64,000 bases of DNA from Acidobacteriota bacterium. Its GTDB lineage: Bacteria > Acidobacteriota > UBA6911 > RPQK01. Position 1 is the stretch's first letter. Each line of letters opens with the position of its first letter. The stretch covers positions 4,257 through 68,256 of the forward strand of contig JBHGBF010000028.1 in NCBI GenBank assembly GCA_041946865.1. The letters are read 5' to 3'. The position numbers and the translations under genes are program-made. Of this stretch, positions 20,698 through 53,351 are shown piece by piece. A model generated the notes under the pieces. The model worked only from the letters and a program-made list of their open reading frames with translations. It had not been told where the DNA came from and did not search any database.

Positions 20698-20913
20698 GGG
20701 CGAGGCCCGAAAGAGCCGCGCCGGAGTTACCTTAGTCCGAATTTGCCCCTGGAGATACTCGTCACACGGAGTCGAGCCGCCGGACTCCAGCGTGGTTCTG
20801 TGTACCGGCCCTTCGCGAAAAGCTCGTGATGGTCCCCCCGTTTGAGGTGCACCCGAAGACATGCCAGAATGGAGCAAAGCTTCCCAAGCTCTCAACTTCC
20901 CCAGGAGAGATTC

Positions 20914-28519: not shown

Positions 28520-28535
28520 TGGCACGCGCTTTGCT
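28520..28535 (+). promoter_or_regulatory. Sigma-54 (RpoN) promoter TGGCAC-N5-TTGCT upstream of the ECF sigma gene
   Basis: The sequence is an exact match to the -24/-12 consensus (TGGCACGcgctTTGCT). The GGAGG ribosome-binding site and ATG at 28564 follow about 30 nt downstream. Confidence 0.55.
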
Positions 28536-28563: not shown

Positions 28564-29133
28564 ATGGGAACTTACATTGCGAGCGTTTCGCCCTTTGAAG
28601 CAGACCTGATGACCCGAATACAGGCCCGGGAAGACGGGGCCTTCACCGAGTTGTTCGAGCGCTTTGAGAACAAGATCTATCGCACCGCCCTGCGGATGTT
28701 GAAAGAAGAGCAGTCGGCCTATGACGCCCTGCAAGAGACGTTTTTGAACGTGTACCGTGCAGCCCGGTATTTCCGTGGCGACTCCAAGGTCGGCACCTGG
28801 ATCAACAGGATCGCGATTAACGTCTGCCTGGAGATGATCAGGAAGAACCGGCGGCACGAGAACCGGACGGACGAGGACATTTCCGAGAACCTGAGTTTAC
28901 CGGACGAGAGCTCAAAGAGCCCGTTACAGACAATCGAGCAGGCGGAGATTCGTGCCCGGGTCCGAAGGGGACTGTCACGCCTCGGCCGGAAGCACCGGAT
29001 CGTCGTGCGCATGCATGACCTGGAAGGCTTCACCATCCGTGAGATTGCCGAGCGCCTCGGCGTCGCCGAGGGCACCATCAAGTCTCGCCTGTTTTACGGG
29101 CGCGAAGAGCTCAAAAGATACCTCAGCAACTGA
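28564..29133 (+). CDS. RNA polymerase sigma-70 family ECF sigma factor
   Basis: Region 2 ('FTELFERFENKIYRTALRMLKEE...TFLNVYRAARYF') and region 4 ('TIREIAERLGVAEGTIKSRLFYGREEL') are both present. I chose the Met 'MGTYIAS', which has a GGAGG ribosome-binding site, over the ORF-track TTG at 28519 because that start would overlap the sigma-54 promoter. Confidence 0.85.
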   Translation: MGTYIASVSPFEADLMTRIQAREDGAFTELFERFENKIYRTALRMLKEEQSAYDALQETFLNVYRAARYFRGDSKVGTWINRIAINVCLEMIRKNRRHENRTDEDISENLSLPDESSKSPLQTIEQAEIRARVRRGLSRLGRKHRIVVRMHDLEGFTIREIAERLGVAEGTIKSRLFYGREELKRYLSN

Positions 29134-30467
29134 GAGGGCCGGGAAGGGGCAATGTCGTCCAGAATGAGCCTCTTCTCGAATTCCGCTACCTTTTCTTTCA
29201 ATCCCCCGGCGTTGGTCCCGCCGGTGCTGGACGCGAGCCGCACGCGTTCGGAAACCATAGACGGGGGAATCGGCTGATCGGGTTCGCACAAAATGACCAT
29301 GCGCTCGACCTCGTTTTCCAGCTCCCGAACGTTGCCCGGCCAGTCGAAGGCTCGCAGCAGCGCCAGGGTTTGCGGTTCAAACGACGGGACGGGCTTGTTC
29401 AATCGCCGCCGGCATCGATCCAGGAAGTAATGGCACAGGGCCACGATGTCGTCCCGCCGGGTGCGTAGCGGGGGGACAAACACTGCAAAGACGTTGAGGC
29501 GGAAAAAGAGATCCTGGCGGAACCGCCCCGCTTCAACCTCGCGGCTCAGCACCCGATTGGTTGACGCAATAATCCGCACGTCGACTTTCCGGGGCGCCTG
29601 GGCGCCTACGGGCAGGATCTCGGCATCCTGCAGCACGCGGAGAAGCTTCACCTGCAAGTCGAGCGGCGCTTCGCCGATCTCGTCCAGGTACAGGGTTCCC
29701 TGGTGCGCCAGCTCAAAATGACCCTTGCGATTCTCGATCGCGCCCGTGAAAGAGCCTTTCTTGTGGCCGAAAAAAGCGCTCTCGATCAGCTCTGACGGTA
29801 TGGCGCCGCAGTTGACGGCAATGAAGGGCTGGTCGGCCCTGGGGCTGTGATCGTGGATGTAGCGGGCCAGCAGTTCCTTCCCGGTTCCGGTCTCGCCCTG
29901 AATCAGAACCGTTGAATTAGTAGGGACGACGCGATCAATCAGGCGCATCAACTCCCGCATCTCCTGGCTCTCGAAAACCAGCTGCTTGCCCACCGGCTCG
30001 AGCGACTCGATCTCCTGGCGCAGCCGGAGGTTCTCTCTTTCAAGCTTCTCATTCGCCCGCCTTAACTCCTCGCTTAGCCGCTCGTTCTCCTTGCGCAGCT
30101 GCCATCGCTCGATTTCCTGTCGCAGGGCCTCCTTGAGAGCGACCGGTTCCCAGGGCTTGGTGATGTAGCGCTGCACCTGGCCCTGATTGATTGCGTCCAT
30201 GAGGTATTCGACGTCGGTGTAACCCGTGAGGATGATCCGTATGGTATCGGGCCGGACTTCCCGCGCCTGCCGCAGCAGGTTCACCCCGCTCATGCCCGGC
30301 ATTCTCTGATCGGTGATGATTGCGACGATCGGCCGCTCCTTGAGGATAAGCAGCGCTTCGTCCCCTGTCTTCGCCTCTTTGACGGTGTAGTCGGTCAGAA
30401 ACGTGCGTTTCAGTTTCTGCAGGTTCGCCGGTTCGTCATCGACGATCAGGATTTCGTGTTTGCTCAT
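29094..30467 (-). CDS. Sigma-54-dependent response regulator (NtrC family) apparently lacking a C-terminal HTH
   Basis: The protein has a receiver domain (the phospho-acceptor Asp lies in 'AIITDQRMPG'), an AAA+ sigma-54 activator domain ('GETGTGKE', 'GAFTGA'-like 'GSFTGA', 'ESAFFGH') and a short C-terminus without a Fis-type HTH. Its 3' end overlaps the ECF sigma 3' end by 40 nt, and the two genes are convergent. Confidence 0.85.
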   Translation of the reverse strand: MSKHEILIVDDEPANLQKLKRTFLTDYTVKEAKTGDEALLILKERPIVAIITDQRMPGMSGVNLLRQAREVRPDTIRIILTGYTDVEYLMDAINQGQVQRYITKPWEPVALKEALRQEIERWQLRKENERLSEELRRANEKLERENLRLRQEIESLEPVGKQLVFESQEMRELMRLIDRVVPTNSTVLIQGETGTGKELLARYIHDHSPRADQPFIAVNCGAIPSELIESAFFGHKKGSFTGAIENRKGHFELAHQGTLYLDEIGEAPLDLQVKLLRVLQDAEILPVGAQAPRKVDVRIIASTNRVLSREVEAGRFRQDLFFRLNVFAVFVPPLRTRRDDIVALCHYFLDRCRRRLNKPVPSFEPQTLALLRAFDWPGNVRELENEVERMVILCEPDQPIPPSMVSERVRLASSTGGTNAGGLKEKVAEFEKRLILDDIAPSRPSQLLRYLLSSSRP

Positions 30468-32593
30468 GCCGGTTTGACTGGTAGCTGGACTCGAAAAACG
30501 GTTCCCTCACCCTTCTGGCTCTGGGCCTCAATGGATCCGTGGTGTTGCTGGATGATTCCGTAACTGATGCTCAACCCGAGGCCGGTTCCCTGGCCGGCCG
30601 GCTTGGTCGTGAAGAAGGGCTCGAAGATCCGGCTCAGATCCTGCTTGTCGATCCCTACGCCGTTGTCTTCCACCTCGACGACGACTTTGCCGTTTCGGCA
30701 GCTGCTCCGGATCCAGATGTCCCCTTCCGCGACAATGGCCTGGCAGGCATTGCTGAGGAGATTGAGGAACACCTGGCTCATCTTGCCCGGATGGCATTCG
30801 ACCTGCGGAACCTGCCCGAACTCCTTGTGAATCCGGATGCGGTCGCGATACTCGTTGTGAAGGAGATTGAGGGCAAGATTGATCGGCTCGTGGATGTCCA
30901 CTGCCCGAAACTCCTCGCGTTCCAGCCGGGAGAAGGTCTTCAGATCGCTGATAATCGAGTGGATTCGCCCCGCGCCTTCCTCGAAATTCTTGACCAGCGT
31001 CTCGAGGTCCTCCAGCATGAACTCGTAGTTCATCTGTTCCTTGAGCCGTTGGATTTCTTCGGCGCCTGCCGGATTCAGACTGGCTTTGCTTTCGTATAAC
31101 GCAATCAGATGTTTCAGGTTGTGGATGTACTGCTTGAGGAAATCCGTGTTCCCGTAAATGAAGTTCAGCGGGTTCTTGATCTCATGGGCGATGCCGGACA
31201 CGAGTTGCCCGAGAGACGCCATTTTTTCGCTCTGGATCAGCTGGACCTGCGTTTCCTTCAGCTCCTCATAAGCTTTCTGGACCTCGCGGTTGCTTTTCTC
31301 GAGCTCTTGGGTGCGCTCGCGGACTTTTTCCTCGAGCCTCTTGTTCAAATCGATCAACGCCTGGCTCCGGTCTTCGAGCGAACGGGCCATCCGATTGAAA
31401 GTCTTGGCCAACTCGCCGATCTCGTCACTGCCGCTCACCACGACCCGCTGGCTGTAGTCTCCTCCCGCTATCACGCTCGCTCCTTGGGTCAGTCTCTTGA
31501 CAGGGATGGTGATACCGCGGGCGACCGAGTAAGTCAGGATAATGACCAGCAGGATCGAGACCGAAACCGCCCCAATCACGATGTTCTTCAGTTCCACAAC
31601 CGGGGCAAAAATCTGCTTTTCATCGATACCCACGGCGCAAACCCAGCGAAAGAACTCGTGGTTGACGGGCGCGATGCCGCTAATCCGGGCCACCCCGGCC
31701 GGGTACTCGTATTGGGCATTCTTTCTTCCCTGGAGGATCGCCTTGTGGAGATTCTCGAGGCTCAGCTCCTGGCTGAGCGTCCGGCCGTAGTTATTCTGGT
31801 CTGCAGATAGCTGCACCGGCGTCGAAAGCCCGAAGCGATTGGTCCTGAATCGGTCGCCGATAATGGTGTTGCGGTCTTCGGCCAGGAGAAAGGCATACCC
31901 GGAACTCAGCGACTGCTGCTCGAGGTCTTCCTCCACTTTGTCCAGAATTTCCTGGATGAACTCCCAGTTCATCAAACCGAGAACGCCGCCGATAACCTCG
32001 CCTTTTTCACTCAACACCGGCGCCGCGAAGCCAATCGAGTACTGCCGGGCCAGATCCTCGTTCTGATAGCCGTACATCTCCTCGACGAGCCGGGACTTGT
32101 GCCATTGAATGTATCCGAACCTCCCGCTCTGCACCTGCTTGAGCCAGTCGGAGCCCGGGGTAAAAGACAGGAGATTCTGCCCTTTGATCTGGTCGGCTCG
32201 GTCGGCATCGAGATGAATCCCGACTCGGTTGCGATCGGCCGTGTTCGATACCAGGATGTTCCCGTTCCGGTCAAACAGGACCAGCAGATCGTAGACTTCG
32301 TGAATTTCGACAAGGAAGTCGAGAAGCTGCTTCGGGTCTGGGCTTCGGTCGCCGCTCAGGTAGTCCCGGAAGTCACGATACAGGCTGGTGGAGATCATCT
32401 CCTCGGTCTTCTCGAGGAGAGTCAACTGAATGGTGTCGCTAATGTCACGGGCAATCTGTTCCAGAAAGAGCGCAATCCGATCCTCGGTGATCCGGTTCTT
32501 GGCTTGAAAGTAGGAGAAAACGGAAACGCCAATCAACGGAACCAGGCACAAAGGCAGAATCAGAAGAAGCAGTTTGTATTTCAGACTCTGCAT
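30464..32593 (-). CDS. Sensor histidine kinase (Cache-like periplasmic domain, HAMP, HisKA, HATPase_c)
   Basis: The 709-aa protein has an N-terminal TM segment, a large periplasmic domain, a second TM segment, HAMP, an H-box 'GIAHEIKNPLNFI', and N/G boxes in the C-terminus. Confidence 0.85.
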   Translation of the reverse strand: MQSLKYKLLLLILPLCLVPLIGVSVFSYFQAKNRITEDRIALFLEQIARDISDTIQLTLLEKTEEMISTSLYRDFRDYLSGDRSPDPKQLLDFLVEIHEVYDLLVLFDRNGNILVSNTADRNRVGIHLDADRADQIKGQNLLSFTPGSDWLKQVQSGRFGYIQWHKSRLVEEMYGYQNEDLARQYSIGFAAPVLSEKGEVIGGVLGLMNWEFIQEILDKVEEDLEQQSLSSGYAFLLAEDRNTIIGDRFRTNRFGLSTPVQLSADQNNYGRTLSQELSLENLHKAILQGRKNAQYEYPAGVARISGIAPVNHEFFRWVCAVGIDEKQIFAPVVELKNIVIGAVSVSILLVIILTYSVARGITIPVKRLTQGASVIAGGDYSQRVVVSGSDEIGELAKTFNRMARSLEDRSQALIDLNKRLEEKVRERTQELEKSNREVQKAYEELKETQVQLIQSEKMASLGQLVSGIAHEIKNPLNFIYGNTDFLKQYIHNLKHLIALYESKASLNPAGAEEIQRLKEQMNYEFMLEDLETLVKNFEEGAGRIHSIISDLKTFSRLEREEFRAVDIHEPINLALNLLHNEYRDRIRIHKEFGQVPQVECHPGKMSQVFLNLLSNACQAIVAEGDIWIRSSCRNGKVVVEVEDNGVGIDKQDLSRIFEPFFTTKPAGQGTGLGLSISYGIIQQHHGSIEAQSQKGEGTVFRVQLPVKPA

Positions 32594-41793: not shown

Positions 41794-43509
41794 TTATGGC
41801 TTAAGGTCTTTTACTGCGCTTGACGACAACACCGTCTTCGGGATCGGCAGAGAAAGCATCTCGGACAGGCTCTGAGAATGAGAGACTGCCTCCCGGCACA
41901 GCAGCAGTTGCTGATCGCTTAGCCGGTCCCTTCTCGTAAAAAGCACTATGACGTCGCGATTGCGATACTCGTCCAACCCTTCAAAAACGCGAGTCAGACA
42001 GAAGCTCGCCCGGAAATCCGTTTGTTGAAGCAGTTCGGGATACAGGAGACTGGGTTCCCCCTCCCGTTCCACAACGGCCGCCAGCCAATGAGTCACCCCG
42101 CGGCGCCGAAGGTAACTCCATTCCAGAGGGTGACGCGCCAGGTAGTGGTCGTTGAGTCCCATAACGTCGACCACTTCGCGATCGGCATAGTACGGTATTT
42201 GCCCGGCTTGGTCGACTGCCAGCACAGCGTTTGCGGGGAGGTTCTCTTTGACCCATTTCCCGAGCACGAAAAGCGGCGTAGCGTGGCGCGCAGTCAGGGT
42301 TTGACGCACTCGCTCCATGCTCAGGAGAGGGAGCGTGCCGTAGAAGAGGGGATTTTGAAAGAACTGAGTGATTGGTTGGAAGGCGAGAAGAACAACAGCC
42401 AGAACCGGACTCCAGATTCGTCCCGGCCAGATGGTCTTCGCGCCCGCGAAATTCGGAAGTGGTTGCCCGACAACCACCATCAGGATTGGGACAACAGAGA
42501 GCACATTAATCAAACACCAGGTTACCTGGAAGAATCTGAATAGTGGCCAGAAATCACCGCCCACACTGGCTACAAAAACGAGGTTCGAGGCCATGACGAG
42601 ACCCACCAGGGAGAGCGCCCTGTAGGAAAGGTTTTTGAGCCAGATAAATCCGGCCAGGGCAAAGAGCATTTCCACCCCCAGTCTCTCCCGAAAGAATTGG
42701 CCGCTGTAACGAAGGCCGGTTTTCAATATTCCCACCCAGCTCCTGATATCCCCGTCGGCCCGGAGCGCAACCTTCGCGTAGAACGTATTCGGCAGCCACT
42801 CGCCATACAGAAAATGGCGCAGCAGCAGGAAACCAGTGAAGAGCAAAAAGAAGGGCAGAAGCCAATTCAACAATAGCCTTCGAAACAAAAGCTTCCGGAG
42901 TGTCACAAGCAAGAACAATCCCGCAACGCCCGCGTACAGGATCCCCTCCGGTCGGGTCAGCGCGACGGCAAGCCAGAGCAACATGTTCAGCAACTGGTTG
43001 CACGACCGAGGTTCCTGATCGGTCCTGAGCGTGTGCCACAAGCCGGCCAGAACGAGCGCCGTGAAGCTGACCGTCTCCATCCCGCTCTTGGTATAAACAA
43101 GAACCGAGGGGTTCAGAGCCACGAGCAAAGCAGCAAGCCCGGTCACCCATACCGGCGCGGCTTTTCCGGCCTTGCCGGTGATTTCTCGAAGGAGTTTTGC
43201 GCTAAAGAGACCCAGAGCAACCGCCGAAAAGAAGGACGCCAGCTTGATCCAGAGGAAGACCGAACCAGGCAGCCAGTAGAAACCGGCCGTGAGCAGCGTC
43301 CACAAAGGGTTCGAAAAGCCCTCCACGCGCGAATAACCGGAGACCGCCTGCTGCTGAAGAGTGAGAAAAAACGGACCGACCCCTCGCGCCAGGTTGCGCG
43401 CGTAGAGCATGCCTATAAACGAATCATCCCACAAGTCGTTGTTTCCGAACAGAAACTGGAGCCCAGCGAACAGGACGACCAGAATCGACACGTAAGCGGC
43501 GCGACGCAT
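41794..43509 (-). CDS. Polytopic membrane protein, glycosyltransferase-like (GT39/GT83/ArnT-PMT superfamily, tentative)
   Basis: The 571-aa protein has at least 12 TM segments and N-terminal loop motifs reminiscent of lipid-linked-sugar transferases. No stronger assignment is possible by eye. Confidence 0.45.
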   Translation of the reverse strand: MRRAAYVSILVVLFAGLQFLFGNNDLWDDSFIGMLYARNLARGVGPFFLTLQQQAVSGYSRVEGFSNPLWTLLTAGFYWLPGSVFLWIKLASFFSAVALGLFSAKLLREITGKAGKAAPVWVTGLAALLVALNPSVLVYTKSGMETVSFTALVLAGLWHTLRTDQEPRSCNQLLNMLLWLAVALTRPEGILYAGVAGLFLLVTLRKLLFRRLLLNWLLPFFLLFTGFLLLRHFLYGEWLPNTFYAKVALRADGDIRSWVGILKTGLRYSGQFFRERLGVEMLFALAGFIWLKNLSYRALSLVGLVMASNLVFVASVGGDFWPLFRFFQVTWCLINVLSVVPILMVVVGQPLPNFAGAKTIWPGRIWSPVLAVVLLAFQPITQFFQNPLFYGTLPLLSMERVRQTLTARHATPLFVLGKWVKENLPANAVLAVDQAGQIPYYADREVVDVMGLNDHYLARHPLEWSYLRRRGVTHWLAAVVEREGEPSLLYPELLQQTDFRASFCLTRVFEGLDEYRNRDVIVLFTRRDRLSDQQLLLCREAVSHSQSLSEMLSLPIPKTVLSSSAVKDLKP

Positions 43510-43575: not shown

Positions 43576-45210
43576 TCAGCTGGCTTGCTCCGCTACCTTG
43601 ATCAGCTGCCTGGCGGGAACGTTTCGCAAGGTTTGTTTACGGCCGGACGGCCAGACAACCTCCACTTCGTCGGCGTGGCTTCTGGGTCCAAGACCGAAAG
43701 TCAGTCGAAGCTGGGATTGGCTGCAATAGCTGGCGCCACTCTTCACCGTCTGAACCTGGCGCAGCGGCCCGGCCTTGACTCGGACCACCGCGCCGACCCC
43801 ATCGCGGTTGCTCGGGCTTCCTTTCAGTTCAAAGGCGACCCAGTTATTCCGGCTGCCGCCCTCGTTACGGAAAAGGGCCGCGGGGCCTCCAGACGTTGTG
43901 ATCAGGACGTCCAGGTCCCCGTCATTGTCGATGTCGCCATAGGCGGCGCCCCGGCCTACTCGAGGCGCGCTGAAATCCTTGCCCATGAGGTCGGTTACAT
44001 GCGCAAACCGGCCCCGGCCTTTGTTCTCAAACAGGTGGGGCGGCTGCGCATAGGTCACCCGCTTCTGGACGCGGTTGATATCGTTCTCGACGTGGCCGTT
44101 GGCGACATATATATCCGGCCGCCCGTCGAGGTTGTAGTCGAAAAAGAAACATCCAAACGCAAGCGTGAGGAGACTTGCGGGACCGAGGGCCGAACGAGGC
44201 GCCTCGTCAATAAAAAACCCGGTGCCCTCGTTATGGTAAAGAGCCAGCATCTGGTTGGAGAAGTTGCCGATTACGACGCTCAGATGGCCTGAGCCGTCAT
44301 AGTCGGCAGCATCGATTCCCATCGCGCCGCGCGCCACTCCGTCCTCGCTGAACGCCACCCCCGCCATCACTCCGACCTCGGCGAAGGTCCCGTCGTGCTT
44401 GTTTTCCCACAGTTTGTTCGGCTGGGTGTCGTTGGCCTGGAGGACGTCGGGCCACCCGTCCCAGTTGTAATCAAAGACCAGAACTCCGAGCCCCTTGTTT
44501 GTCTCGTCAAAGAGCTTCGCCTCCTTGGTCACATCCTTGAAGCGTCCACGGCCGAGGTTTTTGTAGAGTCGAGGTGACACACCCGGGTACGATTCGGGCG
44601 TGCAATAGGACTTGGATTCACCGTCCAAGGTGCAGAAAAGGTCGCTTTCGCGACCCCACTTCACGTAATTGGCCACAAACAGGTCGAGCTGCCCGTCGCG
44701 GTTGTAATCCAGCCAGGCTGCGCTGCTGCCGAAGTCCGGATTCCCCAAACCCGCCGCCCGGGTCACGTCATGAAAAACACCGTTGCCCTGGTTCTGAAAC
44801 AGGCGATCAGCCCCGAGAGCGGTCACGTAGATATCCTGATCACCGTCGTTGTCGTAATCGGCGATGGCACATCCCATCCCATACATCTCGACGGCAAGAC
44901 CCGCCGGTCTGGTCACGTCAGTGAAAGTTCCGTTCTTGTTGTTCCGATAAAGACTGGAATAGCTGATTTTCTTCTTCCGTTCCGGCCAGTCGCTCCCGTT
45001 CACCAGGAAGATGTCGAGCCAGCCGTCGTTGTTGTAGTCGAGGAAGGCACAGCCGGCGCCCATCGTCTCGGGCAGGTACTTCTTTCCGTAAGCTCCGTTA
45101 TTGTGAACGAAATTAATGCCTGCCTGGCGGGTTACGTTGGTAAAACGCACCTGCGCGGCGACCGGGACCAGGAAGCCCGTCAGCAGCCAAATCCAGAGAA
45201 GTCGCTTCAT
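43576..45210 (-). CDS. CRTAC1 family protein (FG-GAP/VCBS repeats + ASPIC/UnbV C-terminal domain), secreted
   Basis: The signal peptide 'MKRLLWIWLLTGFLVPVAAQ' is followed by repeated 'DYNNDGWLD / DYDNDGDQD / DYNRDGQLD' calcium-binding FG-GAP loops, and the C-terminal 'WPSGRKQTL' region is ASPIC-like. Confidence 0.8.
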   Translation of the reverse strand: MKRLLWIWLLTGFLVPVAAQVRFTNVTRQAGINFVHNNGAYGKKYLPETMGAGCAFLDYNNDGWLDIFLVNGSDWPERKKKISYSSLYRNNKNGTFTDVTRPAGLAVEMYGMGCAIADYDNDGDQDIYVTALGADRLFQNQGNGVFHDVTRAAGLGNPDFGSSAAWLDYNRDGQLDLFVANYVKWGRESDLFCTLDGESKSYCTPESYPGVSPRLYKNLGRGRFKDVTKEAKLFDETNKGLGVLVFDYNWDGWPDVLQANDTQPNKLWENKHDGTFAEVGVMAGVAFSEDGVARGAMGIDAADYDGSGHLSVVIGNFSNQMLALYHNEGTGFFIDEAPRSALGPASLLTLAFGCFFFDYNLDGRPDIYVANGHVENDINRVQKRVTYAQPPHLFENKGRGRFAHVTDLMGKDFSAPRVGRGAAYGDIDNDGDLDVLITTSGGPAALFRNEGGSRNNWVAFELKGSPSNRDGVGAVVRVKAGPLRQVQTVKSGASYCSQSQLRLTFGLGPRSHADEVEVVWPSGRKQTLRNVPARQLIKVAEQAS

Positions 45211-48028
45211 AGTTTTTCAGTCGTGAGACATCCGCGAGCGTTTCCAGCCGTACGCTCGAATGCTCGTGAATGGCCTGTCGCTCATTGTTGTTTTCGGGAT
45301 GCGCCAGTCGATGCGGTCCGGTGATGGCCTGCGAGCTTTCATCGGCCTTGAACCGCAGGTACAGCTTCTGTTCGCGCTCCGCCAGCGCCCGGTTGCCCAT
45401 TCCCCGATAAGCCAGCATCAGGTTGTAATGAGCCTGCAGGTCCTCGGGATCGATCCGCAAAACACGATTCAGCACTTCCACCGCTTCCTTGAACTGGCGC
45501 TTCAAGAACAGGATCCGGCCGATCTGGTTCAATACCATGCGGTCCTGGGGGTACTTCGACTCCGCTTTCCACAGATGTTCCAGGGCTTTTTCATAATTCC
45601 CCTGCGTCTTGTACGTCATGCCAAGGAAGAAATGGGTTTTGGCCAGTTCGGGATCAAGCCTGAGTGCATCCAGCAGGACTTCCTGGGCCTCCTGGGTCCG
45701 GCCTTCCTGAGCACGGACGCGGCCGATATTCACATAGCCGTCGACATACTTCGGATTGATTTGCACAACCCGTTTGAAAATCTCCTCCGCCGCCTTCAAA
45801 TCGCCCTGCAGTAACAGACCAATCCCATAATCGTTCCAGCGGATCAGGTCTTTCGGGTTGAGCACCGCCTCTTGGTGGGAAACGTCCGTGCCGGCGGGAA
45901 CGACTTTCAGCTGAGCCGTGGTTTCCGCCATGACGACAATGGGGAGATCCGGAATCTCCTTGAGCTTTCCCGAAACCTTGGAAAGGTCCCCGGTGAAGAC
46001 CCATTTCCCATCGTCATATCCGGGAGCGATCGAGACCGCAACCTGGCTCGGATCCCGCACCCCGGCATAGGCCCATTGCGTATTCCACCACGCGAATTTG
46101 CGGTAATTGACCTTGGCTTTGAGCGTGATTGTCCCGCCGGCATCCCCGGGAATCTTGAGTCGATAATGCACGGTGTCGGCGGCCCCAGGCGGGATCAGCC
46201 GCACGTACAAAACCGACCGCGCCATCCAGGCGTTGCGTTTGTTGATGTGATTGCCGTTTGCGTCGAGCAGGAAGGAGCGGTAAAAATGAGCGGAGGGCTC
46301 GACCGGCCCCTTGCGTCCTGACTCGTCTTCGGGCACGTAGCCGCTCCAGAAGATGGTTTTCCCGCGCTCGTCGACCGCCTGCAGCTCCACCCAGACATCG
46401 AATCCGTCGACTGTCCCGCCCGGGAAGAAGTGGCCGACGTTTTTCGTCCTCACGACGACATCCACACGGACGTCATCCCCGGCCTGTACCAGGGGGTTGA
46501 CGCGGTTTACCGGCGCCAGGATCTTTGCCGCTTCCGTATACCCGGCTCCGACGCCGACCGCGAAGCCCATCTGGTCGCCTTCCGCAAATGTGCTGGAGAT
46601 CTGCGGCTCGTCCGCACTTGCCGCCCGGCGCCCGGCAGACTCCTCCCCGACAACTTCCCCCGCCTCGCTGACCGCGAAAATATCCACCCCGACCTGGTCG
46701 CTTTTCAGAAACTTGATCACCGTCTCGAGCTGCTCGTGATCTTTGTTGGCAAAGGGGAGAGCCGTGTTGGCGGCCGGGAAGCGGTGGCTGTGTACGAATC
46801 CATTGAGGTTGCCGGCATCGTTCGAGGCGACCAGCGGCATATGACAATCGGCGCATTTCTTCGACTGTTTCGGGTAGTAGAACGAACGTGCGGAATGCCC
46901 CGAAATCCCGCTGTTCTGCCAGGCGTCATAGTCATTGAAACCCCTGGTCCACCGGTAATTGTTGACCGGAATATCCAGATGCACCTTGTGACAGCTCGAG
47001 CAGTAATCGGGAGTCTGGCTCCGGAAAAACGGCTTCAGGAACGTCCGGCGATGCGGGCCGGGATCGAGCCGGACCACAAAATCGTGGACCCCCTTGATCA
47101 GCCGGTTCTCGCTGGTCGCCAGATCGTGGAGCGGCGGGTATTCAATCACGAAATGCCCGTTACCCATCGTGCTCCCTACCGACACGATCGAGTGGCACGA
47201 CGTACACGTCAAACCGGCCTGCGCCTCGGGCGTGTGGATCTGGTCCTTGATTGGTCGATCCATCATGCCGTTGAAGAAAACCGCATGATCGTGACAGCCG
47301 CCGCACCACTTGGACGGCTTGGTTCCCACCACGTCCTGCATGTATTCGATCGATTTCCGGTACCACTGGTTGTTGAAAGAGGAGAAGTGATGCGCGCTCG
47401 AGGCCCATTGCCTGTAAATGTCGGGGTGACATCCCTTGCTGGCGCACGACTCCGGCTTCATGAAAAACGCCGACGGAATCGTCCGGTTCACGTCGGTATT
47501 GGCCGAAGAGGGGAAAAACGGGCTCTCCGCCCCCGCGCCTTCCTCTTCCATTCGAACCGGAACCGCCGTCGGATTGACGATCTCCCAGCTGGGATTCGGG
47601 TAGTAACGGTACCAGGTCTGAACACCCAGCGGCAGCGCCAGCCCGATAACCAGCGCCGCCACCAGGAGCGCCCGGCTCCGGCCCGAGATGAGACTGGCCA
47701 TCACAAAGAGCACGAATCCGCTGCCGACAACCACGATATGAGCCAGGAGGAGCCAGTAGTATGGACGGGTCGCGCCCGTTATGACCAGCGCTGTGCCGAG
47801 CAGCCCGCCGGCGATCATCAGGATGACCGCCAGCCGGCTTAACCAGGAGGCCTGTCGAAGCGAACCGCGCAAAAAAGCGACCAGGCCCACCAGGACCAGC
47901 GCCCCCAGCCCCAAGTGCAACAGGAGATTCGCGACGTAGAAAAGCGTCGGTGAATCAAAACTGTACAGGTAAGCGCTGTTGATCACCAGCAGAGCCAGGG
48001 CAGCCGACAGCCGACGAGTCATAGGCAT
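45113..48028 (-). CDS. Membrane-anchored multihaem cytochrome c (c554-like haem block) fused to a C-terminal TPR domain
   Basis: The N-terminus has five predicted TM helices. A periplasmic block follows with CGGCH, CTSCH, CSSCH, CADCH and an atypical CASKGCH (CX4CH). The C-terminal ~250 aa are TPR repeats. The start was taken at the Met 'MPMTRRLSAAL' (ORF maximum 48067, TTG). The 3' end overlaps the CRTAC1 start by 98 nt. Confidence 0.75.
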   Translation of the reverse strand: MPMTRRLSAALALLVINSAYLYSFDSPTLFYVANLLLHLGLGALVLVGLVAFLRGSLRQASWLSRLAVILMIAGGLLGTALVITGATRPYYWLLLAHIVVVGSGFVLFVMASLISGRSRALLVAALVIGLALPLGVQTWYRYYPNPSWEIVNPTAVPVRMEEEGAGAESPFFPSSANTDVNRTIPSAFFMKPESCASKGCHPDIYRQWASSAHHFSSFNNQWYRKSIEYMQDVVGTKPSKWCGGCHDHAVFFNGMMDRPIKDQIHTPEAQAGLTCTSCHSIVSVGSTMGNGHFVIEYPPLHDLATSENRLIKGVHDFVVRLDPGPHRRTFLKPFFRSQTPDYCSSCHKVHLDIPVNNYRWTRGFNDYDAWQNSGISGHSARSFYYPKQSKKCADCHMPLVASNDAGNLNGFVHSHRFPAANTALPFANKDHEQLETVIKFLKSDQVGVDIFAVSEAGEVVGEESAGRRAASADEPQISSTFAEGDQMGFAVGVGAGYTEAAKILAPVNRVNPLVQAGDDVRVDVVVRTKNVGHFFPGGTVDGFDVWVELQAVDERGKTIFWSGYVPEDESGRKGPVEPSAHFYRSFLLDANGNHINKRNAWMARSVLYVRLIPPGAADTVHYRLKIPGDAGGTITLKAKVNYRKFAWWNTQWAYAGVRDPSQVAVSIAPGYDDGKWVFTGDLSKVSGKLKEIPDLPIVVMAETTAQLKVVPAGTDVSHQEAVLNPKDLIRWNDYGIGLLLQGDLKAAEEIFKRVVQINPKYVDGYVNIGRVRAQEGRTQEAQEVLLDALRLDPELAKTHFFLGMTYKTQGNYEKALEHLWKAESKYPQDRMVLNQIGRILFLKRQFKEAVEVLNRVLRIDPEDLQAHYNLMLAYRGMGNRALAEREQKLYLRFKADESSQAITGPHRLAHPENNNERQAIHEHSSVRLETLADVSRLKNYEATSLDLAADGLPGPGRRAGAFYQRNPPGRH

Positions 48029-48144
48029 ACTCTTCTCACGATCACCTCGGGATCGCCAACCGGTCAATCATCCATCGTCTTGGCCTGGGATGCCTCAAGA
48101 TAGGGGGCCGCAACGATCGCTCGTGGCGGGATACTTTTTGTAGA

Positions 48145-48160
48145 GCAAACTCCGTGCCGA
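48145..48160 (-). promoter_or_regulatory. Candidate sigma-54 promoter (minus strand CGGCAC-N5-TTGCT) upstream of the cytochrome-TPR/CRTAC1 genes
   Basis: The reverse complement of 48140..48164 reads cacttcGGCACggagtTTGCtctac. The GG and GC dinucleotides are correctly spaced, with one mismatch to TGGCAC. It lies about 100 nt upstream of the cytochrome start. Confidence 0.4.
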
Positions 48161-48371: not shown

Positions 48372-50006
48372 ATGAATGGCCTCCGCGAGCGGCTGAAGAA
48401 GGACACTTCGAGCCTGAAGATTACCGTGGTGCTTTTTGCGGTCCTGCTCGCGATTAACTGCGCGGCGGTCTGGTTCATCCTGGTCTCACGCCGCAATGTT
48501 CAGCAAATCGCGGCCCAGGACTTGCAGCTGCAAACGACTGCCCAGGCGCGCTCGATCGAAGCCTTGCTGGCGAATTTGCGAGGCGAGTTTCTTTTCCTGT
48601 CGCAGTCGGCCCCACAGTCGACGGCCGTAACGGTCCTCTCCGACCCGAACCCGCTCGTGAAGCGCTGGGGCCGGCTGGATGTGGAAGGCATTTTCCTCCG
48701 CTTTCTCCAAGCCCGCCCGGAAGTCTTACGGCTGATCCTGCGTGACGGCGCAGGCAAGCCGCTTATCGTGGCGGGGCGCCGGGAGGGCGCTCCTGTGCTT
48801 CTGCCCCCTGGGGATTTCACCCAGGCGGCGACCAGCGGCGGCAACGTGTGGGCCAGCCAGTGGCCGATTGCGGCGGGCCCGCCGGAAAACGGCATCTTGG
48901 AGACGTTGCTGGACGTCTCGGAGCTGCTTTCCGTCGTGGCGCCGGGCAGCGAGTCCAAGCTGAAAATCGTTCAGGAACGCCGGCCGCTCGTTCGACCGCC
49001 CTCCGACGACTCGCTGGTGGCCTCGGTGCCGATTCGAGACGAACACTGGACCACCCCCATACACTGGACCTTGATTCGGACCGAGAATCAAAGCCAGCTG
49101 GTCTCGTCGGTCGCCAACCTGGCGGCGCATTACCGGGCGACGATTATCCTCAACCTTTTGGTCATAAGCCTGACGCTGGTCCTGGGCGCTCTGGCGTTCC
49201 GGCAGGTTCGACGCTCGGCGATTCTTGAGGCAGAGAATCGGCATCAGGCCAGGGTCCGGGAGCTGGAACGCCAAATGCTCCATACGGAGCGGCTGGCGAG
49301 CGTCGGTCGACTGGCAGCCGGCCTGGCCCATGAGATCAACAATCCGCTGGAGGGCATCGGGAACTATCTGAGCCTCTTGGAGGAAGACCTGAAGGACGGA
49401 CGGGCAGAGGGCTGTCTGGAGCTGACCGCAGGCGTCCGAGAGGGGCTCAATCGTGCGGCGGGGATCACGCGCCAGGTTCTGGCTCTCTCCGACCCGGGCA
49501 GAAGCCCCAAAACGGCAATGAGCATGAACGCCGTGGCCAGGGAGACCTTCGATTTTGTCAGGTCTAATCCGGCTTTTCGGCACGTCCGCATGGAGCTGCG
49601 TGTTCCCGATGATGACCTGATCATTCTCGGGAACGCGATTACCCTGGGCCAGGTCGTCTTGAATCTGATCCTCAACGCCTGTGAGTATCAGGAGCAGGGA
49701 GGCCAGGTCGAGGTGGTGTTGGACCGCGTGGACGCCAAGGCGCGCTTGAGGGTGAGCGATCGGGGGCCTGGCATTCCCGAAGACGCATTACCAAGGATTT
49801 TTGAGCCCTTCTTTTCGACCCGAGGCTCGACGGGACTCGGGCTGTCGCTTTGCCATTCGATCGTGACCGACCATGCCGGGCAGGTGACGGCCGCCAACCG
49901 CGGCGATGGGCAGGGCGCGGTCTTCACGGTGGAAATCCCGCTAAGCGAACCGCGAGCCGCCGACACCGAGCCTGCTGGGGTCAAGGAGAAGGAACTGACA
50001 GGCTGA
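48372..50006 (+). CDS. Sensor histidine kinase (two TM segments, periplasmic sensor, HisKA, HATPase_c)
   Basis: The 544-aa protein has the H-box 'GLAHEINNPLEGI' and G-boxes 'DRGPGIPED' and 'GSTGLGLSL'. A TTGTCA-N18-TATCTT sigma-70-like promoter lies just upstream. Confidence 0.85.
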   Translation: MNGLRERLKKDTSSLKITVVLFAVLLAINCAAVWFILVSRRNVQQIAAQDLQLQTTAQARSIEALLANLRGEFLFLSQSAPQSTAVTVLSDPNPLVKRWGRLDVEGIFLRFLQARPEVLRLILRDGAGKPLIVAGRREGAPVLLPPGDFTQAATSGGNVWASQWPIAAGPPENGILETLLDVSELLSVVAPGSESKLKIVQERRPLVRPPSDDSLVASVPIRDEHWTTPIHWTLIRTENQSQLVSSVANLAAHYRATIILNLLVISLTLVLGALAFRQVRRSAILEAENRHQARVRELERQMLHTERLASVGRLAAGLAHEINNPLEGIGNYLSLLEEDLKDGRAEGCLELTAGVREGLNRAAGITRQVLALSDPGRSPKTAMSMNAVARETFDFVRSNPAFRHVRMELRVPDDDLIILGNAITLGQVVLNLILNACEYQEQGGQVEVVLDRVDAKARLRVSDRGPGIPEDALPRIFEPFFSTRGSTGLGLSLCHSIVTDHAGQVTAANRGDGQGAVFTVEIPLSEPRAADTEPAGVKEKELTG

Positions 50007-50121: not shown

Positions 50122-51516
50122 ATGAGCGCAAGGACGAACACCAAGGGCACGGTCTTGATCGTGGATGACGAAACCTACGTACGGGACTCCCTGGCCACGG
50201 TGATGAGACGCAAAGGGTACATGGTGCGAACTGCACCGGGCGCGGAGCAGCTCATCGCCTCAGGAGCGCTGCAAGGGGTCGACGTGGTCGTCACCGATCT
50301 TCGCATGCCGGGGCAGGACGGGCTTACCTTCCTGCGTTCTCTTGCGGAAACCGAGTCGACGATTCCCGTCATCGTCCTCACGGGCCACGGCACTGTTCCC
50401 TCGGCGGTCGAGTGCATGAAAGCCGGCGCCTTCGATTACCTGCTCAAGCCTTCGACCCCCGACGAGCTGGACCTGGTCATCGACCGGGCGATCAACCAGA
50501 CGACAATGAAACGGGAGCTTGAGTACTTCCGTTCCGCCGACGCCCGGAAGCCTGGACCGTCAGGGCCCGTCGGCGTGAGCGCCGGCTGGAAGCAGGTGTT
50601 ACGGCTGGTTGAAGCGGCGGCGCCGGCGGACACGACGGTGCTTCTCCTCGGCGAGTCGGGAACCGGAAAGGGCGAAGCGGCTCGTCTGGTTCATCAATGC
50701 AGCCGCCGCAACAAGAAGCCGTTCGTTCGTGTGAACTGCGCCGCCATCCCGATCGATCTTTTCGAGAGCGAATTTTTCGGGCACCGGCGGGGATCTTTTA
50801 CGGGGGCGACGGCCGATCGCGAAGGACGTTTTCGAGTCGCGCACCAGGGGACGCTGTTCATGGACGAGATCACCTCCATGCCGGCAGCCGCGCAGGCCAA
50901 GGTGCTCCGGGTGCTGGAGGACGGAGTCTTTGAACGGGTGGGAGACAGCAATCCCACGACCGTCGACGTCCGGCTGGTGGCCGCCTGCAACGTGGACCTG
51001 CAGGCCGAAGTGGATGCCGGACGGTTTCGCCAGGACCTGTTTTACCGCATAAATGTCATGACCATTCATATCCCTCCACTGCGGGAACGCAGGGAGGATA
51101 TCCCGGTCCTGGCCCAGAGTTTTCTCGATGAGTTCCGCGCGAGACTGGCACGGCCTGTGCATTCTTTCGATCCCGAAACCATGAAGATCCTCGAAGCGTA
51201 CCACTGGCCGGGCAACATTCGCGAGTTGCGCAATGTAATCGAGCGCGCCGTTCTTCTGGAGACCGGCCCCGAGCTGATGCCCGATAGCCTGCCCTTCGGG
51301 TTCCAGCAGGAAGGACGTTCCCCGGGTGCGCATCCGCCTGAAGATCTCAACCTTCGAAGTGCCCTGGCGGCCGAGGAGTGCCGGATACTGAAAGCGGCGC
51401 TGGCGCGGTCGAACGGGGTTCGCCGTGAAGCGGCCCGCCTGCTGGGAATTGACGAACGGAATCTCTCCTACTTCCTCAAGAAGCATGGACTGAGCGGAAC
51501 GGGAGGGCGCGCATGA
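50122..51516 (+). CDS. Sigma-54-dependent response regulator (NtrC family) with C-terminal Fis-type HTH
   Basis: The protein has a receiver domain ('VVVTDLRMPG'), AAA+ motifs ('GESGTGKG', 'GSFTGA', 'ESEFFGH') and the HTH 'AARLLGIDERNLSYFLKKHGL'. Confidence 0.9.
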   Translation: MSARTNTKGTVLIVDDETYVRDSLATVMRRKGYMVRTAPGAEQLIASGALQGVDVVVTDLRMPGQDGLTFLRSLAETESTIPVIVLTGHGTVPSAVECMKAGAFDYLLKPSTPDELDLVIDRAINQTTMKRELEYFRSADARKPGPSGPVGVSAGWKQVLRLVEAAAPADTTVLLLGESGTGKGEAARLVHQCSRRNKKPFVRVNCAAIPIDLFESEFFGHRRGSFTGATADREGRFRVAHQGTLFMDEITSMPAAAQAKVLRVLEDGVFERVGDSNPTTVDVRLVAACNVDLQAEVDAGRFRQDLFYRINVMTIHIPPLRERREDIPVLAQSFLDEFRARLARPVHSFDPETMKILEAYHWPGNIRELRNVIERAVLLETGPELMPDSLPFGFQQEGRSPGAHPPEDLNLRSALAAEECRILKAALARSNGVRREAARLLGIDERNLSYFLKKHGLSGTGGRA

Positions 51517-53351
51517 GGCGCGTCTTCTTCCAGGAGAGCGCAGGGATCCTGCCTGCGCGGGTATCCTGCCTGCTGCTTCTGGTCCCGGCCCTCTTCCTCG
51601 CCGGCTGTCAAAGCCAACCCGAACCCTCAAAGCCGGGAGAGAGGGCCGGCAGCAGGCCGGAACAAGCGAGAGACGAGGTTCAGAAGCCGCAAGCGGCGCC
51701 GCCTGCGGCCCCGGGCAGAGCCGAAGTCTCTACTCCCAAGGCGCCGGCGTCCCCGCCGGCCGGCGCTTTCCTTTTCACCGACATGACGGCGTACTCGGGG
51801 ATTGTCTTCACGCATTTCAACGACGCGACACCCCGCAAGTATCTTCCCGAGACCATGGGCGCCGGGGTCGCCCTCCTGGATTACGACAACGACGGCCTCG
51901 TCGATATTTACCTGGTCAACGGCGCCAGACTGAAACCTCCCCGGGATGTCCCCGGCGCACCGACCGGGGCGCTGTACCGGAATCTGGGCAACTGGAAGTT
52001 CCAGGCCGTTACGGCGCAGGCGGGCCTGGACCAGCCCATGTTCGGGATGGGCATCGCCGTCGGCGACTATGACAACGACGGCTTCACCGATCTCTTTATC
52101 AACGGCGTGGATGGCGATCGCCTTTACCGGAATGCGGGGAACGGCACTTTCGAGGATGTGAGCGAGCGCGTCGGGCTGAACGATTCCGGCTTCGGTTCGA
52201 GCGCCGCTTTCCTTGACTATGATCGCGACGGCTACCTGGACCTCTTTGTCGGCCGTTACGTCGAATGGACACGCGAGACCGACATTACCTGCAGCCCGGA
52301 CGGCGTCCACCGGGTGTACTGCACGCCGGAGGCGTATCACGGCGAGAGCAACCGGCTTTACAGGAATATGGGGGGCCGCCGTTTCAAGGATGTCACCCGC
52401 TCCTCGGGGATCTGGCAGCAGGACGGCAAGACGCTCGGCGTCGCCATCATGGATCATAACCATGACGGCTGGCCGGACATTGCAGTCGCCAACGACACCG
52501 TTCGCAATTTCCTGTTCGTGAACAACCGGGACGGCACCTTTACCGAAAGCGGGGTCGCGACCGGAATGGCGTACAGCGAGTCCGGCGCCACGCGAGGCGG
52601 AATGGGTATCGACGCGGGTGATGCCGACGGAGACGGCTTCACGGACATCGTCGTAGGGAACTTCTCCCAGGAAATGAGCGCCCTTTACCGTGGGTCGGCA
52701 GCGGGCTTTTTCGTCGATGACGCGCCGCAGGCGGGAATCGGCCTGCCCACGCTTATGACCCTGGCTTTTGGAACCCTTTTCTTCGACTACGACAACGACG
52801 GCCTGCTGGACCTGCTGATTGCCAACGGCCACATTGAGCCCGAGATCAACAAGACGCAACGGCTCCAGCAGTACGCTCAGCCTCCCCAGCTTTTCAGGAA
52901 CGAGGGCGACGGCAATTTCAGGCAGATGACCGACAGTGCGGGCAGCCCGCTCAGAGAGCCGCTGGTCGGCCGGGGCCTGGCTTCGGGTGACCTGGATGGT
53001 GACGGCGACCTCGACATTGTCATTACACAGAACGGGCATCGGGCCAAGGTCTGGCGGAACAACGCGAGGCGCCAATCCTGGCTTCGGGTCCAGTTGTGCG
53101 GCAATCGAAGCAACCGAACCGGCTACGGGGCAGTCATCAAGGCGGTTGCCGGGAAGAAGACCTGGGTGCGAATGTTCAGCTCAGGACGCTCGTATCTCTC
53201 GGCGTGCGAACCCATAACGAGCATCGGGCTCGGCTCGGTCACCGCGCTGGACCGGCTCGAAATCACCTGGCCTTCCGGCCAGGTCCAGACGATACAGCGC
53301 CCGCCGCTGAACCAGCTTTTGAAGGTGAAAGAAGCTCCGGCAGCCACCTGA
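51513..53351 (+). CDS. CRTAC1 family lipoprotein (FG-GAP repeats + ASPIC/UnbV domain)
   Basis: The lipobox 'LFLAGCQSQ' is followed by a Pro/Ala-rich linker, then repeated 'DYDNDGxxD' FG-GAP loops and a C-terminal 'ITWPSGQVQT' ASPIC-like domain. It overlaps the regulator stop by 4 nt and is co-transcribed with it. Confidence 0.8.
   Translation: MRRVFFQESAGILPARVSCLLLLVPALFLAGCQSQPEPSKPGERAGSRPEQARDEVQKPQAAPPAAPGRAEVSTPKAPASPPAGAFLFTDMTAYSGIVFTHFNDATPRKYLPETMGAGVALLDYDNDGLVDIYLVNGARLKPPRDVPGAPTGALYRNLGNWKFQAVTAQAGLDQPMFGMGIAVGDYDNDGFTDLFINGVDGDRLYRNAGNGTFEDVSERVGLNDSGFGSSAAFLDYDRDGYLDLFVGRYVEWTRETDITCSPDGVHRVYCTPEAYHGESNRLYRNMGGRRFKDVTRSSGIWQQDGKTLGVAIMDHNHDGWPDIAVANDTVRNFLFVNNRDGTFTESGVATGMAYSESGATRGGMGIDAGDADGDGFTDIVVGNFSQEMSALYRGSAAGFFVDDAPQAGIGLPTLMTLAFGTLFFDYDNDGLLDLLIANGHIEPEINKTQRLQQYAQPPQLFRNEGDGNFRQMTDSAGSPLREPLVGRGLASGDLDGDGDLDIVITQNGHRAKVWRNNARRQSWLRVQLCGNRSNRTGYGAVIKAVAGKKTWVRMFSSGRSYLSACEPITSIGLGSVTALDRLEITWPSGQVQTIQRPPLNQLLKVKEAPAAT

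Follow-up and report, generated by a model that had tools for sequence, protein, structure and literature searches.

A five-helix membrane anchor, a pentahaem cytochrome core and a tetratricopeptide-repeat arm combined in an unnamed protein family of Acidobacteriota

Introduction

Geobacter CbcL consists of a b-type HydC/FdnI domain fused to a nine-haem c domain, and ImcH as well as CymA/NrfH are inner-membrane quinol:multihaem-c oxidoreductases. The subject of the present analysis is a gene on the minus strand of a 64,000-nucleotide stretch of DNA from an Acidobacteriota bacterium (GenBank assembly GCA_041946865.1, contig JBHGBF010000028.1, positions 4,257 to 68,256; hereafter the window), whose product appears to follow the same concept, namely a membrane domain (with b-haem in CbcL) joined to a periplasmic multihaem wire that serves periplasmic or extracellular acceptors. 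However, no homology to CbcL, ImcH, CymA or NrfH is detectable, haem count and fold differ, and the tetratricopeptide repeat (TPR) arm of the window protein is absent from all of them. Searches of Pfam and NCBIfam returned no match to the NapC/NirT family either; the window protein has five helices and another haem domain. From the N- to the C-terminus, it comprises five transmembrane (TM) helices, a pentahaem c domain, a beta-sandwich, a TPR domain and a conserved tail. These features are jointly best explained if the gene product is an inner-membrane-anchored electron-transfer protein of a large uncharacterised family, a reading that we regard as probable on balance.

The closest described relatives of the haem-binding part are found in the PHC family, in which a pentahaem domain is followed by an immunoglobulin (Ig)-like domain and which includes ExtKL, Gsu2801 and cable-bacteria cytochromes (PMC11976967). 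The low-potential penta-haem cytochrome c552 of Thermochromatium tepidum (PDB 5ZE8), with ExtKL, Gsu2801 and the cable-bacteria proteins sPHC and lPHC as its kin, shares with the window protein the order of five c-haem motifs and an Ig-like beta-sandwich as well as a CxxCH-DIY-QW-S-H pattern at haem 1. Known PHC proteins are soluble, periplasmic and about 400–450 amino acids (aa) long, and sequence identity is around 14%; in contrast, the window protein has a far larger beta-sandwich region and, in addition, a five-helix membrane domain with histidines, a TPR arm and a conserved tail. MccSep/ExtKL, the Geobacter polysulfide reductase (PDB 9WT8), likewise combines a pentahaem domain with an Ig-like domain at the C-terminus, which extends into a haem pocket. 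In this enzyme, the Ig-like domain supplies a catalytic selenocysteine beside the His/Cys-ligated haem 2 (bioRxiv 10.1101/2025.11.18.688581). The window protein has no selenocysteine, no cysteine outside its haem motifs and no His/Cys haem, and differs further in being membrane-anchored and in carrying TPRs. Cytochrome c554 of Nitrosomonas, finally, is a soluble tetrahaem protein, whereas five haems and a membrane anchor are predicted here.

The gene and its product

Read from a TTG at position 48067, the open reading frame (ORF) extends over positions 45113 to 48067 of the minus strand and encodes 984 aa. An ATG at position 48028 yields a protein of 971 aa, the sequence of which is exactly that of NCBI entry MFB3902884.1, and this ATG is probably the true start of the cytochrome gene. 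The entry, which stems from a contig of 76.7 kb, bears the generic name 'MAG: tetratricopeptide repeat protein [Acidobacteriota bacterium]' (MAG, metagenome-assembled genome) and no other. A full-length AlphaFold2 (AF2) model, built on 60 homologues, reached a predicted local distance difference test score (pLDDT) of 74.9 and a predicted template-modelling score of 0.77. At its 3′ end, the cytochrome ORF runs into the neighbouring CRTAC1-like gene for 98 nucleotides (nt; positions 45113–45210), which is accounted for by a disordered, non-conserved extension of 38 aa. A frameshift was considered as the cause of this overlap and rejected on the grounds that the tail is disordered in the AF2 model and not conserved in the alignment of homologues.

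A pentahaem core with the PHC fold

The protein contains exactly ten cysteines, all of which reside in five haem motifs: C208ASKGCH, C255GGCH, C288TSCH, C356SSCH and C405ADCH. An earlier annotation made from the DNA letters without database searches (the sequence-only reading) had noted the four canonical CXXCH motifs CGGCH, CTSCH, CSSCH and CADCH, all of which are indeed present, and had proposed that CASKGCH represents a CX4CH haem-binding variant. Comparison with relatives agrees with this proposal. In the alignment, the haem-1 column pairs FFMTSETCKR--CHADIY with FFMKPESCASKGCHPDIY, and the homologous site of 208 full-length relatives has the form CX2CH in 130 and CX4CH in 78. When the two states are mapped on a neighbour-joining tree, at least 15 changes are required, compared with about 63 for shuffled labels. 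The length of the haem-1 loop is thus an inherited trait that has nonetheless been interconverted repeatedly, and this repeated interconversion argues strongly, on comparative grounds, that haem is bound by both forms and, hence, that the family is pentahaem. On the strength of the alignment, the CX4CH motif is to be read as a genuine haem-1 site with a two-residue insertion in the loop. Such sites are uncommon but have precedent, since this form is found at two of the four haem sites of Desulfovibrio cytochrome c3. The switching between CX2CH and CX4CH at a single site represents a natural experiment on the loop length tolerated by haem attachment.

Pfam recognizes Cytochrome_C554 (PF13435), a broad family of multihaem motifs, at residues 211–293 with 27.0 bits against a cut-off of 20.8, and several TPR families at residues 737–910, as the sequence-only reading had anticipated. 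Its label 'c554-like' is therefore apt for the broad Pfam motif family but not for the fold, for which the penta-haem c552 of the PHC family, 5ZE8, is the best match; no c554 structure occurs among the top fold matches obtained with Foldseek. Between the haem block and the TPRs lies a beta-sandwich of about 270 aa that had been overlooked, and for which a Pfam search with residues 455–735 alone gave nothing significant. A PDB profile search and a fold search with the whole protein were swamped by TPR matches, whereas searches with sub-domains were informative. For the fold search, a sub-model of residues 152–735 (pLDDT 69.9) was used, its sub-region query being aligned with full-length database homologues. 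A profile of the haem and beta-sandwich parts had a single significant match among PDB sequences, 5ZE8 (E 4.6e-5), with the CxxCH-DIY-QW-S-H stretches paired at haem 1 and the alignment continuing through haems 2 and 3. MccSep/ExtKL came next (E 0.5), and the NCBIfam model for ExtKL gave an E value of 5.7e-4. The top Foldseek match was again 5ZE8 (E 2.1e-8, probability 1.00, 571 columns, target-normalised TM-score 0.53); it covers both domains, and with a root-mean-square deviation of 10 Å and a pLDDT of 70–80 in the helical haem domain it is to be read at the level of the fold only. The remaining matches of the sub-model concern the Ig-like sandwich only, and a fold search with the full-length model found 5ZE8 once more. 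As modelled, the haem and beta-sandwich core thus has the PHC pentahaem cytochrome fold.

Five conserved histidines outside the motifs are candidates for the distal ligands of the five haems. H226, H339, H428 and H546 are invariant in 54 divergent members of the family (29–55% identity), and H594 is found in 49 of them; H546 and H594 belong to the beta-sandwich. The presence of five candidate distal histidines for five haems and the lack of a spare cysteine favor, without proving it, an electron wire in which all haems are bis-His ligated. With all ten cysteines in haem motifs, the chemistry of MccSep, based on a His/Cys haem and selenocysteine, is impossible here, and no in-frame TGA is needed in the window ORF. 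H546 is part of an invariant loop, VGHFFPGGTVD (aa 544–554, positions 46405–46437, minus strand), whose pLDDT is low in either model. It may reach into a haem pocket, by analogy with MccSep and its catalytic loop.

The membrane domain and its histidines

In the AF2 model, TM helices are found at residues 16–36, 42–72, 75–97, 101–128 and 132–155 (pLDDT ~90), and the mean hydropathy of the five segments ranges from 1.2 to 2.2. Across 121 aligned homologues, the mean number of lysine plus arginine residues amounts to 1.9 at the N-terminus, 2.1 in loop 2–3 and 2.6 in loop 4–5, as opposed to 0.1 in loop 1–2 and 0.8 in loop 3–4. This distribution over five helices indicates an N-in/C-out topology and consequently a periplasmic haem block. 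The periplasm is the place of c-type haem attachment. The helices and the charge tally hence uphold the assertion of the sequence-only reading that five N-terminal TM helices put the rest of the protein into the periplasm, and the C-out orientation speaks against a cytoplasmic haem block. The loops on the cytoplasmic side comprise 5–9 residues only. A Pfam search with the TM domain alone (residues 1–165) gave nothing significant.

Within this otherwise poorly conserved region, H51, G55 and H110 are near-invariant. H51 occurs in 119 of 121 close homologues and in 40 of 42 divergent relatives that carry the TM domain, and H110 in 120 and 41 of them, respectively. An alignment of 18 sequences sharing 18–35% identity retains, after the initial methionine, only H51, G55, G91 and H110 as invariant positions. 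According to the AF2 model, both histidines lie at a depth of about nine residues from the periplasmic end of their helix. Divergent relatives possess a second pair of histidines, located exactly 18 residues after H51 in TM2 and 14 residues after H110 in TM4, i.e., at the cytoplasmic ends of these helices. Both histidines of the second pair are present in 17 of 40 divergent members, neither in 20 and a single one in 3; a count with a looser regular expression over 80 representatives gave 43, 33 and 4, respectively. The four-His relatives include proteins P0123, P0146, P0150, P0159–P0162, P0166 and P0186 and loci L081–L095 of our collection. The window protein has H51 and H110 only, which corresponds to one His site rather than to the two-site set of the four-His relatives.

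The second pair is thus gained or lost as a unit. Two helices bearing two histidines each, spaced about 14–18 residues apart and varying together in this way, are the classic signature of two bis-His b-haems stacked across a membrane, as in cytochrome b, b561 and FRD-type proteins. Di-haem b cytochromes of the b561/Ni_hydr_CYTB, DUF4405 and SdhC types likewise have His pairs on two helices at matched depths; the relatives described here carry their second pair 14 residues on along one helix, and the HxxxG motif weakly resembles the haem-ligand helix of SdhC (E 0.083 in a PDB profile search with the TM alignment). The window protein differs from these cytochromes by its five helices, its single His pair and the sub-threshold level of its sequence matches: the TM domain of its relatives scored E 0.001 and 20 bits (cut-off 26.7) against DUF4405 and E 0.13 and 0.83 against Ni_hydr_CYTB. 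Judging from conservation, H51 and H110 most likely bind one b-haem near the periplasmic face, and the four-His relatives would bind two.

The TPR arm and the CRTAC1-like neighbor

AF2 predicts eleven TPR-type helices at residues 738–922, a length of about 185 aa, and Pfam TPR models match residues 737–910 with E values from 1e-17 to 1e-21. Foldseek matches for this region are CTPR, MamA, OGT and PEX5. The TPR domain postulated by the sequence-only reading therefore exists but is shorter than the ~250 aa given there, the rest being the conserved tail and the disordered extension. In the tail, NNERQxIHEH, residues N927, N928, E929, R930, H934, E935 and H936 are invariant among close homologues; the consensus is kept in the divergent alignment and is still recognizable at 30% identity. 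The tail could provide a metal or haem ligand or act as a peptide that fills the TPR groove.

Directly downstream of the cytochrome gene lies a gene for a CRTAC1-like protein, which has the FG-GAP propeller and the UnbV_ASPIC domain that define vertebrate cartilage acidic protein. This likeness concerns the neighbor rather than the cytochrome itself. Of the related loci, 64 extend far enough downstream, and in 52 of these an orthologue occupies the same place, being 56–84% identical and starting within 1.5 kb, usually after 0–150 nt; a second, more divergent CRTAC1-like paralogue often follows the first. The pairing recurs around a four-His clade that is only 37% identical to the window protein. 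De novo clustering of ORFs from 80 loci, in which many clusters are antisense ORFs of GC-rich DNA, revealed no other conserved neighbor apart from a kinase/regulator pair in the nearest relatives. CRTAC1-family FG-GAP genes have also been reported between genes encoding the alpha-subunit and beta-gamma-subunit homologues of hydrazine synthase in non-anammox bacteria (PMC12758564), which constitutes a second, independent association of the propeller family with periplasmic haem proteins. A paper on Solibacter lists ASPIC/UnbV paralogues without a function. Further downstream in the window, positions 41794–43509 (minus strand) encode a polytopic membrane protein of 571 aa whose resemblance to LA_3751/3752-type glycosyltransferases is faint (E 0.009). 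This GT-C-like protein was considered as a part of the system and rejected, as it is syntenic in none of the related loci.

A large and unnamed family

The best 120 database homologues are 57–89% identical to the window protein at a query coverage of 92–97% (79–89% in three shorter or longer entries), are mostly 925–990 aa long and stem nearly all from Acidobacteriota MAGs. A scan of a species-representative collection with one genome per species found a close relative encoded in 281 stretches from Vicinamibacteria, Blastocatellia, Terriglobia and unclassified Acidobacteriota, a few bins being labelled otherwise. Far from being a one-off, the family is abundant: an exhaustive HMMER search with the haem and beta-sandwich part retrieved 2,832 clusters at 50% identity with E values of at most 1e-3, and 732 with E values of at most 1e-30. 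Five haem motifs are present in 89 of 90 full-length representatives and three to five N-terminal hydrophobic segments in 74, while the divergent members mentioned above contain TPRs in 54 of 54 cases and Cytochrome_C554 in 52.

Relatives are filed in the databases just as 'tetratricopeptide repeat protein', and their cytochrome nature is consequently invisible to multihaem surveys that depend on annotation. No description of the architecture of TM, pentahaem, beta-sandwich and TPR parts was found in the literature searched, which agrees with the sequence-only reading, where it is called atypical for respiratory cytochromes; the TPR/NrfG genes of a Tenderiales preprint are unrelated. The family is large, unnamed and unstudied, and comes from soil Acidobacteriota. 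Its building blocks, the PHC pentahaem fold, the TPRs and the CRTAC1-like neighbor, are known. New, as far as the literature searched goes, are the combination of these parts and the unclassified histidine-bearing five-helix domain, as are the dichotomy of two-His and four-His members and the near-obligate association with a gene for a CRTAC1 homologue. In soil, Acidobacteriota rank among the most abundant bacteria, and their electron-transfer proteins are poorly known.

A probable membrane-to-periplasm electron-transfer protein

The combination of a histidine-bearing anchor, a five-haem periplasmic cytochrome, a TPR arm and a near-constant CRTAC1-like neighbor argues that the protein most likely moves electrons rather than senses redox state, and an MtrC/OmcA-like decahaem gene in the same window provides context for this reading. 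In the mechanism we propose, H51 and H110 would hold one b-type haem near the periplasmic face, and the second His pair of divergent relatives would create a set of two haems spanning the membrane. The b-haem would connect the membrane, i.e., the quinone pool or, in the four-His relatives, a donor on the cytoplasmic side, to the five-haem wire. The TPR arm, which is of the peptide-binding type, might together with the tail hold the co-encoded CRTAC1-like calcium propeller, or a client of this propeller, beside the haem chain, and electrons would then pass to or from a substrate in the periplasm or cell envelope. In the lineage of the window, the neighboring histidine kinase and NtrC-type regulator would activate the operon through a sigma-54 promoter.

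A more far-reaching proposal, which is speculative and which we consider rather doubtful at present, is that the gene pair encodes an unrecognised, widespread redox machine of the cell envelope, found in soil Acidobacteriota and some other phyla. Here, a new membrane domain with one or two b-haems would feed a PHC wire, and the TPR arm would dock the CRTAC1-like propeller as substrate-binding or catalytic subunit. If true, bacterial CRTAC1 homologues would thereby gain a functional context for the first time, and periplasmic or extracellular electron transfer a new point of entry or exit at the inner membrane. Should the membrane histidines bind haem b, the protein would represent a b/c fusion cytochrome of a new type that joins membrane and periplasm, and would then be a candidate for the inner-membrane step that is missing from extracellular or periplasmic electron transfer in Acidobacteriota. 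The tight pairing with CRTAC1-like proteins also opens a testable route into a protein family that is conserved from bacteria to humans.

Several points weigh against the electron-transfer reading. With a single His pair on the periplasmic side, the window protein cannot itself carry electrons across the membrane. The assignment of a b-haem is tentative, being based on the conservation pattern and geometry; every match of the TM domain to known b-cytochrome families stays below threshold, and no quinol-binding motif was identified. The AF2 models do not include haems, and their pLDDT is 70–80 in the haem domain. About 15 of the 90 full-length representatives have no polytopic anchor but only a signal peptide, a signal peptide-like segment or a single helix, which implies that the pentahaem–TPR core can work without a direct link to the membrane. 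As to the partner, 12 of the 64 loci have no adjacent CRTAC1-like gene, no recognisable redox cofactor site was found in the CRTAC1-like protein, and its interaction with the TPR arm is deduced from synteny only.

Alternative functions

A serious alternative, if an unlikely one, is that the PHC core is itself an oxidoreductase, comparable to the polysulfide reductase MccSep, with its active site at one haem, formed by the VGHFFPGGTVD loop, and that the TM and TPR parts are mere anchor and scaffold. The core belongs to the fold family of MccSep/ExtKL and 5ZE8, and in MccSep it is the Ig-like domain that provides haem 2 with a catalytic residue (bioRxiv 10.1101/2025.11.18.688581). The beta-sandwich of the window protein has its invariant His loop placed like this catalytic loop as well as a second near-invariant histidine, and the existence of relatives without a membrane anchor also speaks for this alternative. 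However, cysteine and selenocysteine are absent outside the haem motifs, which precludes the MccSep chemistry, the similarity to MccSep is marginal (E 0.5), and the number of conserved non-motif histidines equals that of the haems, so that no coordination site is obviously open.

The sequence-only reading had favored a role in redox sensing or assembly, and neither has been borne out. As a periplasmic redox sensor, the protein would use its haems to report ambient redox state or a ligand to the neighboring kinase, possibly via the TPR arm, instead of carrying a metabolic flux of electrons. TPR domains do mediate protein–protein contacts, a divergent histidine kinase and an NtrC-type regulator adjoin the gene, a sigma-54 promoter precedes it, and the nearest relatives show the same arrangement. 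An output domain is lacking, however: the protein has neither a transmitter nor a HAMP, GGDEF or MCP domain, and the cytoplasmic loops measure just 5–9 residues. Only some 10–12 of 80 loci have the two-component genes next to the cytochrome gene, compared with 52 of 64 for the CRTAC1-like gene, and five haems capable of bis-His ligation, together with membrane His pairs resembling b-haem sites, exceed the needs of a sensor. The sensor idea is thus weak, and we consider it improbable.

Weaker still is the idea of an assembly factor for cytochrome c maturation, in which a CcmI/CycH/NrfG-like TPR chaperone would be fused to a haem domain and serve unusual sites or another complex. The window protein has in common with these chaperones a periplasmic TPR domain tied to c-type cytochromes. 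Conserved TM histidines are also found in the haem-handling proteins CcmC, CcmF and CcsA, the family has a non-standard CX4CH site of its own, one homologue has been labelled CcmH/NrfG by JGI, and the TPR_CcmH_CycH model matches residues 737–841 (E 2.4e-6) as well as 40 of 54 relatives. Yet this match reaches 27.9 bits against a cut-off of 42 and is no better than generic, with general TPR models, MamA, PilW and PrsT scoring higher. The window protein is itself a pentahaem cytochrome without the CcmH/CcmI membrane module; it has no CcmH-type CXXC, all cysteines being engaged in haem motifs, and a haem-handling (WWD) domain in the anchor was rejected since the sequence has no W-rich motif. Most relatives keep the whole architecture with a canonical CX2CH at site 1, and the conserved partner is a propeller protein rather than a cytochrome. 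A function in assembly therefore seems very improbable.

That a frameshift or assembly error has joined separate genes for the TM, haem and TPR parts is practically out of the question, as nothing was found in its support apart from two oddities, the 98-nt overlap and the 38-aa non-conserved tail, whereas the single ORF assumed by the sequence-only reading is confirmed by the same uninterrupted architecture in the 120 best, near-full-length homologues and the 281 related genome stretches, which excludes a frameshift or mis-assembly, by its recurrence in thousands of independent contigs from hundreds of species and by the independent deposition of the identical protein (MFB3902884.1).

Coordinates, regulation and wider context

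Table 1. Features of the cytochrome locus, in positions of the window, with the evidence for each
Feature	Position	Strand	Basis
Gene for TM, pentahaem, beta-sandwich and TPR protein	45113..48028	(-)	ORF call; NCBI MFB3902884.1; full-length homologues
Five-helix membrane domain, aa 16-155	47603..48022	(-)	AF2 helices, pLDDT ~90; positive-inside tally
H51 codon, TM2, HxxxG motif	47915..47917	(-)	Candidate haem b ligand; conservation
H110 codon, TM4, same depth as H51	47738..47740	(-)	Second candidate ligand of that haem b; conservation
Pentahaem c domain, aa 190-455	46703..47500	(-)	Motifs; Pfam Cytochrome_C554; HMM and Foldseek matches to 5ZE8
CASKGCH, haem-1 site in CX4CH form	47426..47446	(-)	Column-for-column alignment with CX2CH
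Beta-sandwich (Ig-like), aa 456-725	45893..46702	(-)	AF2 strands 459-723; Foldseek; His conservation
TPR domain, ~5.5 repeats, aa 737-922	45302..45859	(-)	Pfam; AF2 pLDDT >90; Foldseek
Conserved C-terminal tail HPENNNERQAIHEH, aa 923-940	45248..45301	(-)	Invariant columns
C-terminal extension, non-conserved, disordered	45113..45229	(-)	pLDDT <50 for aa 947-984; missing from homologues
CRTAC1-like secreted protein	43576..45210	(-)	Signal peptide, seven FG-GAP/VCBS repeats, ASPIC/UnbV (Pfam)
Sigma-54 type -24/-12 element cGGCACGgagtTTGCt, upstream of the cytochrome gene	48145..48158	(-)	Pattern search
Sensor histidine kinase, divergent	48372..50006	(+)	Pfam HisKA, HATPase_c; syntenic in nearest relatives
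NtrC-type sigma-54-dependent response regulator	50122..51516	(+)	Pfam Response_reg, Sigma54_activat, HTH_8; syntenic in nearest relatives
Second CRTAC1-like FG-GAP/ASPIC-UnbV paralogue	51513..53351	(+)	Pfam; synteny in loci L001, L002, L004, L022, L055

The exact sigma-54 core occurs at two sites in the window, compared with 0.27 expected. Among 77 related loci, sites of the sigma-54 type within 300 nt upstream of the gene were found in 12, with about 0.8 expected, and most of these 12 also have a kinase and/or regulator nearby (including L001, L002, L004, L034, L045, L053, L055, L056 and L074). The start of the second CRTAC1-like gene overlaps the stop codon of the regulator gene (ATGA), and the paralogue appears to be co-transcribed with the two-component genes. 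The block of kinase, regulator and second CRTAC1-like gene is syntenic in the nearest relatives only.

The other exact GGCACG-N4-TTGC site, at positions 28521–28534 of the plus strand, is the only one in the window besides the element upstream of the cytochrome gene. It adjoins a second pair of regulatory genes on the minus strand (positions 29094–32593), one for a histidine kinase of the Cache/HAMP type and the other for a sigma-54 response regulator, which suggests a second sigma-54 regulon nearby. The MtrC/OmcA-like gene occupies positions 20842–22989 of the plus strand, directly after a GH116 glycosidase gene (positions 18130–20697), and encodes a decahaem cytochrome of 715 aa with ten CXXCH motifs and a match to Pfam MtrC/MtrF domains II/IV at an E value of 4.5e-48.

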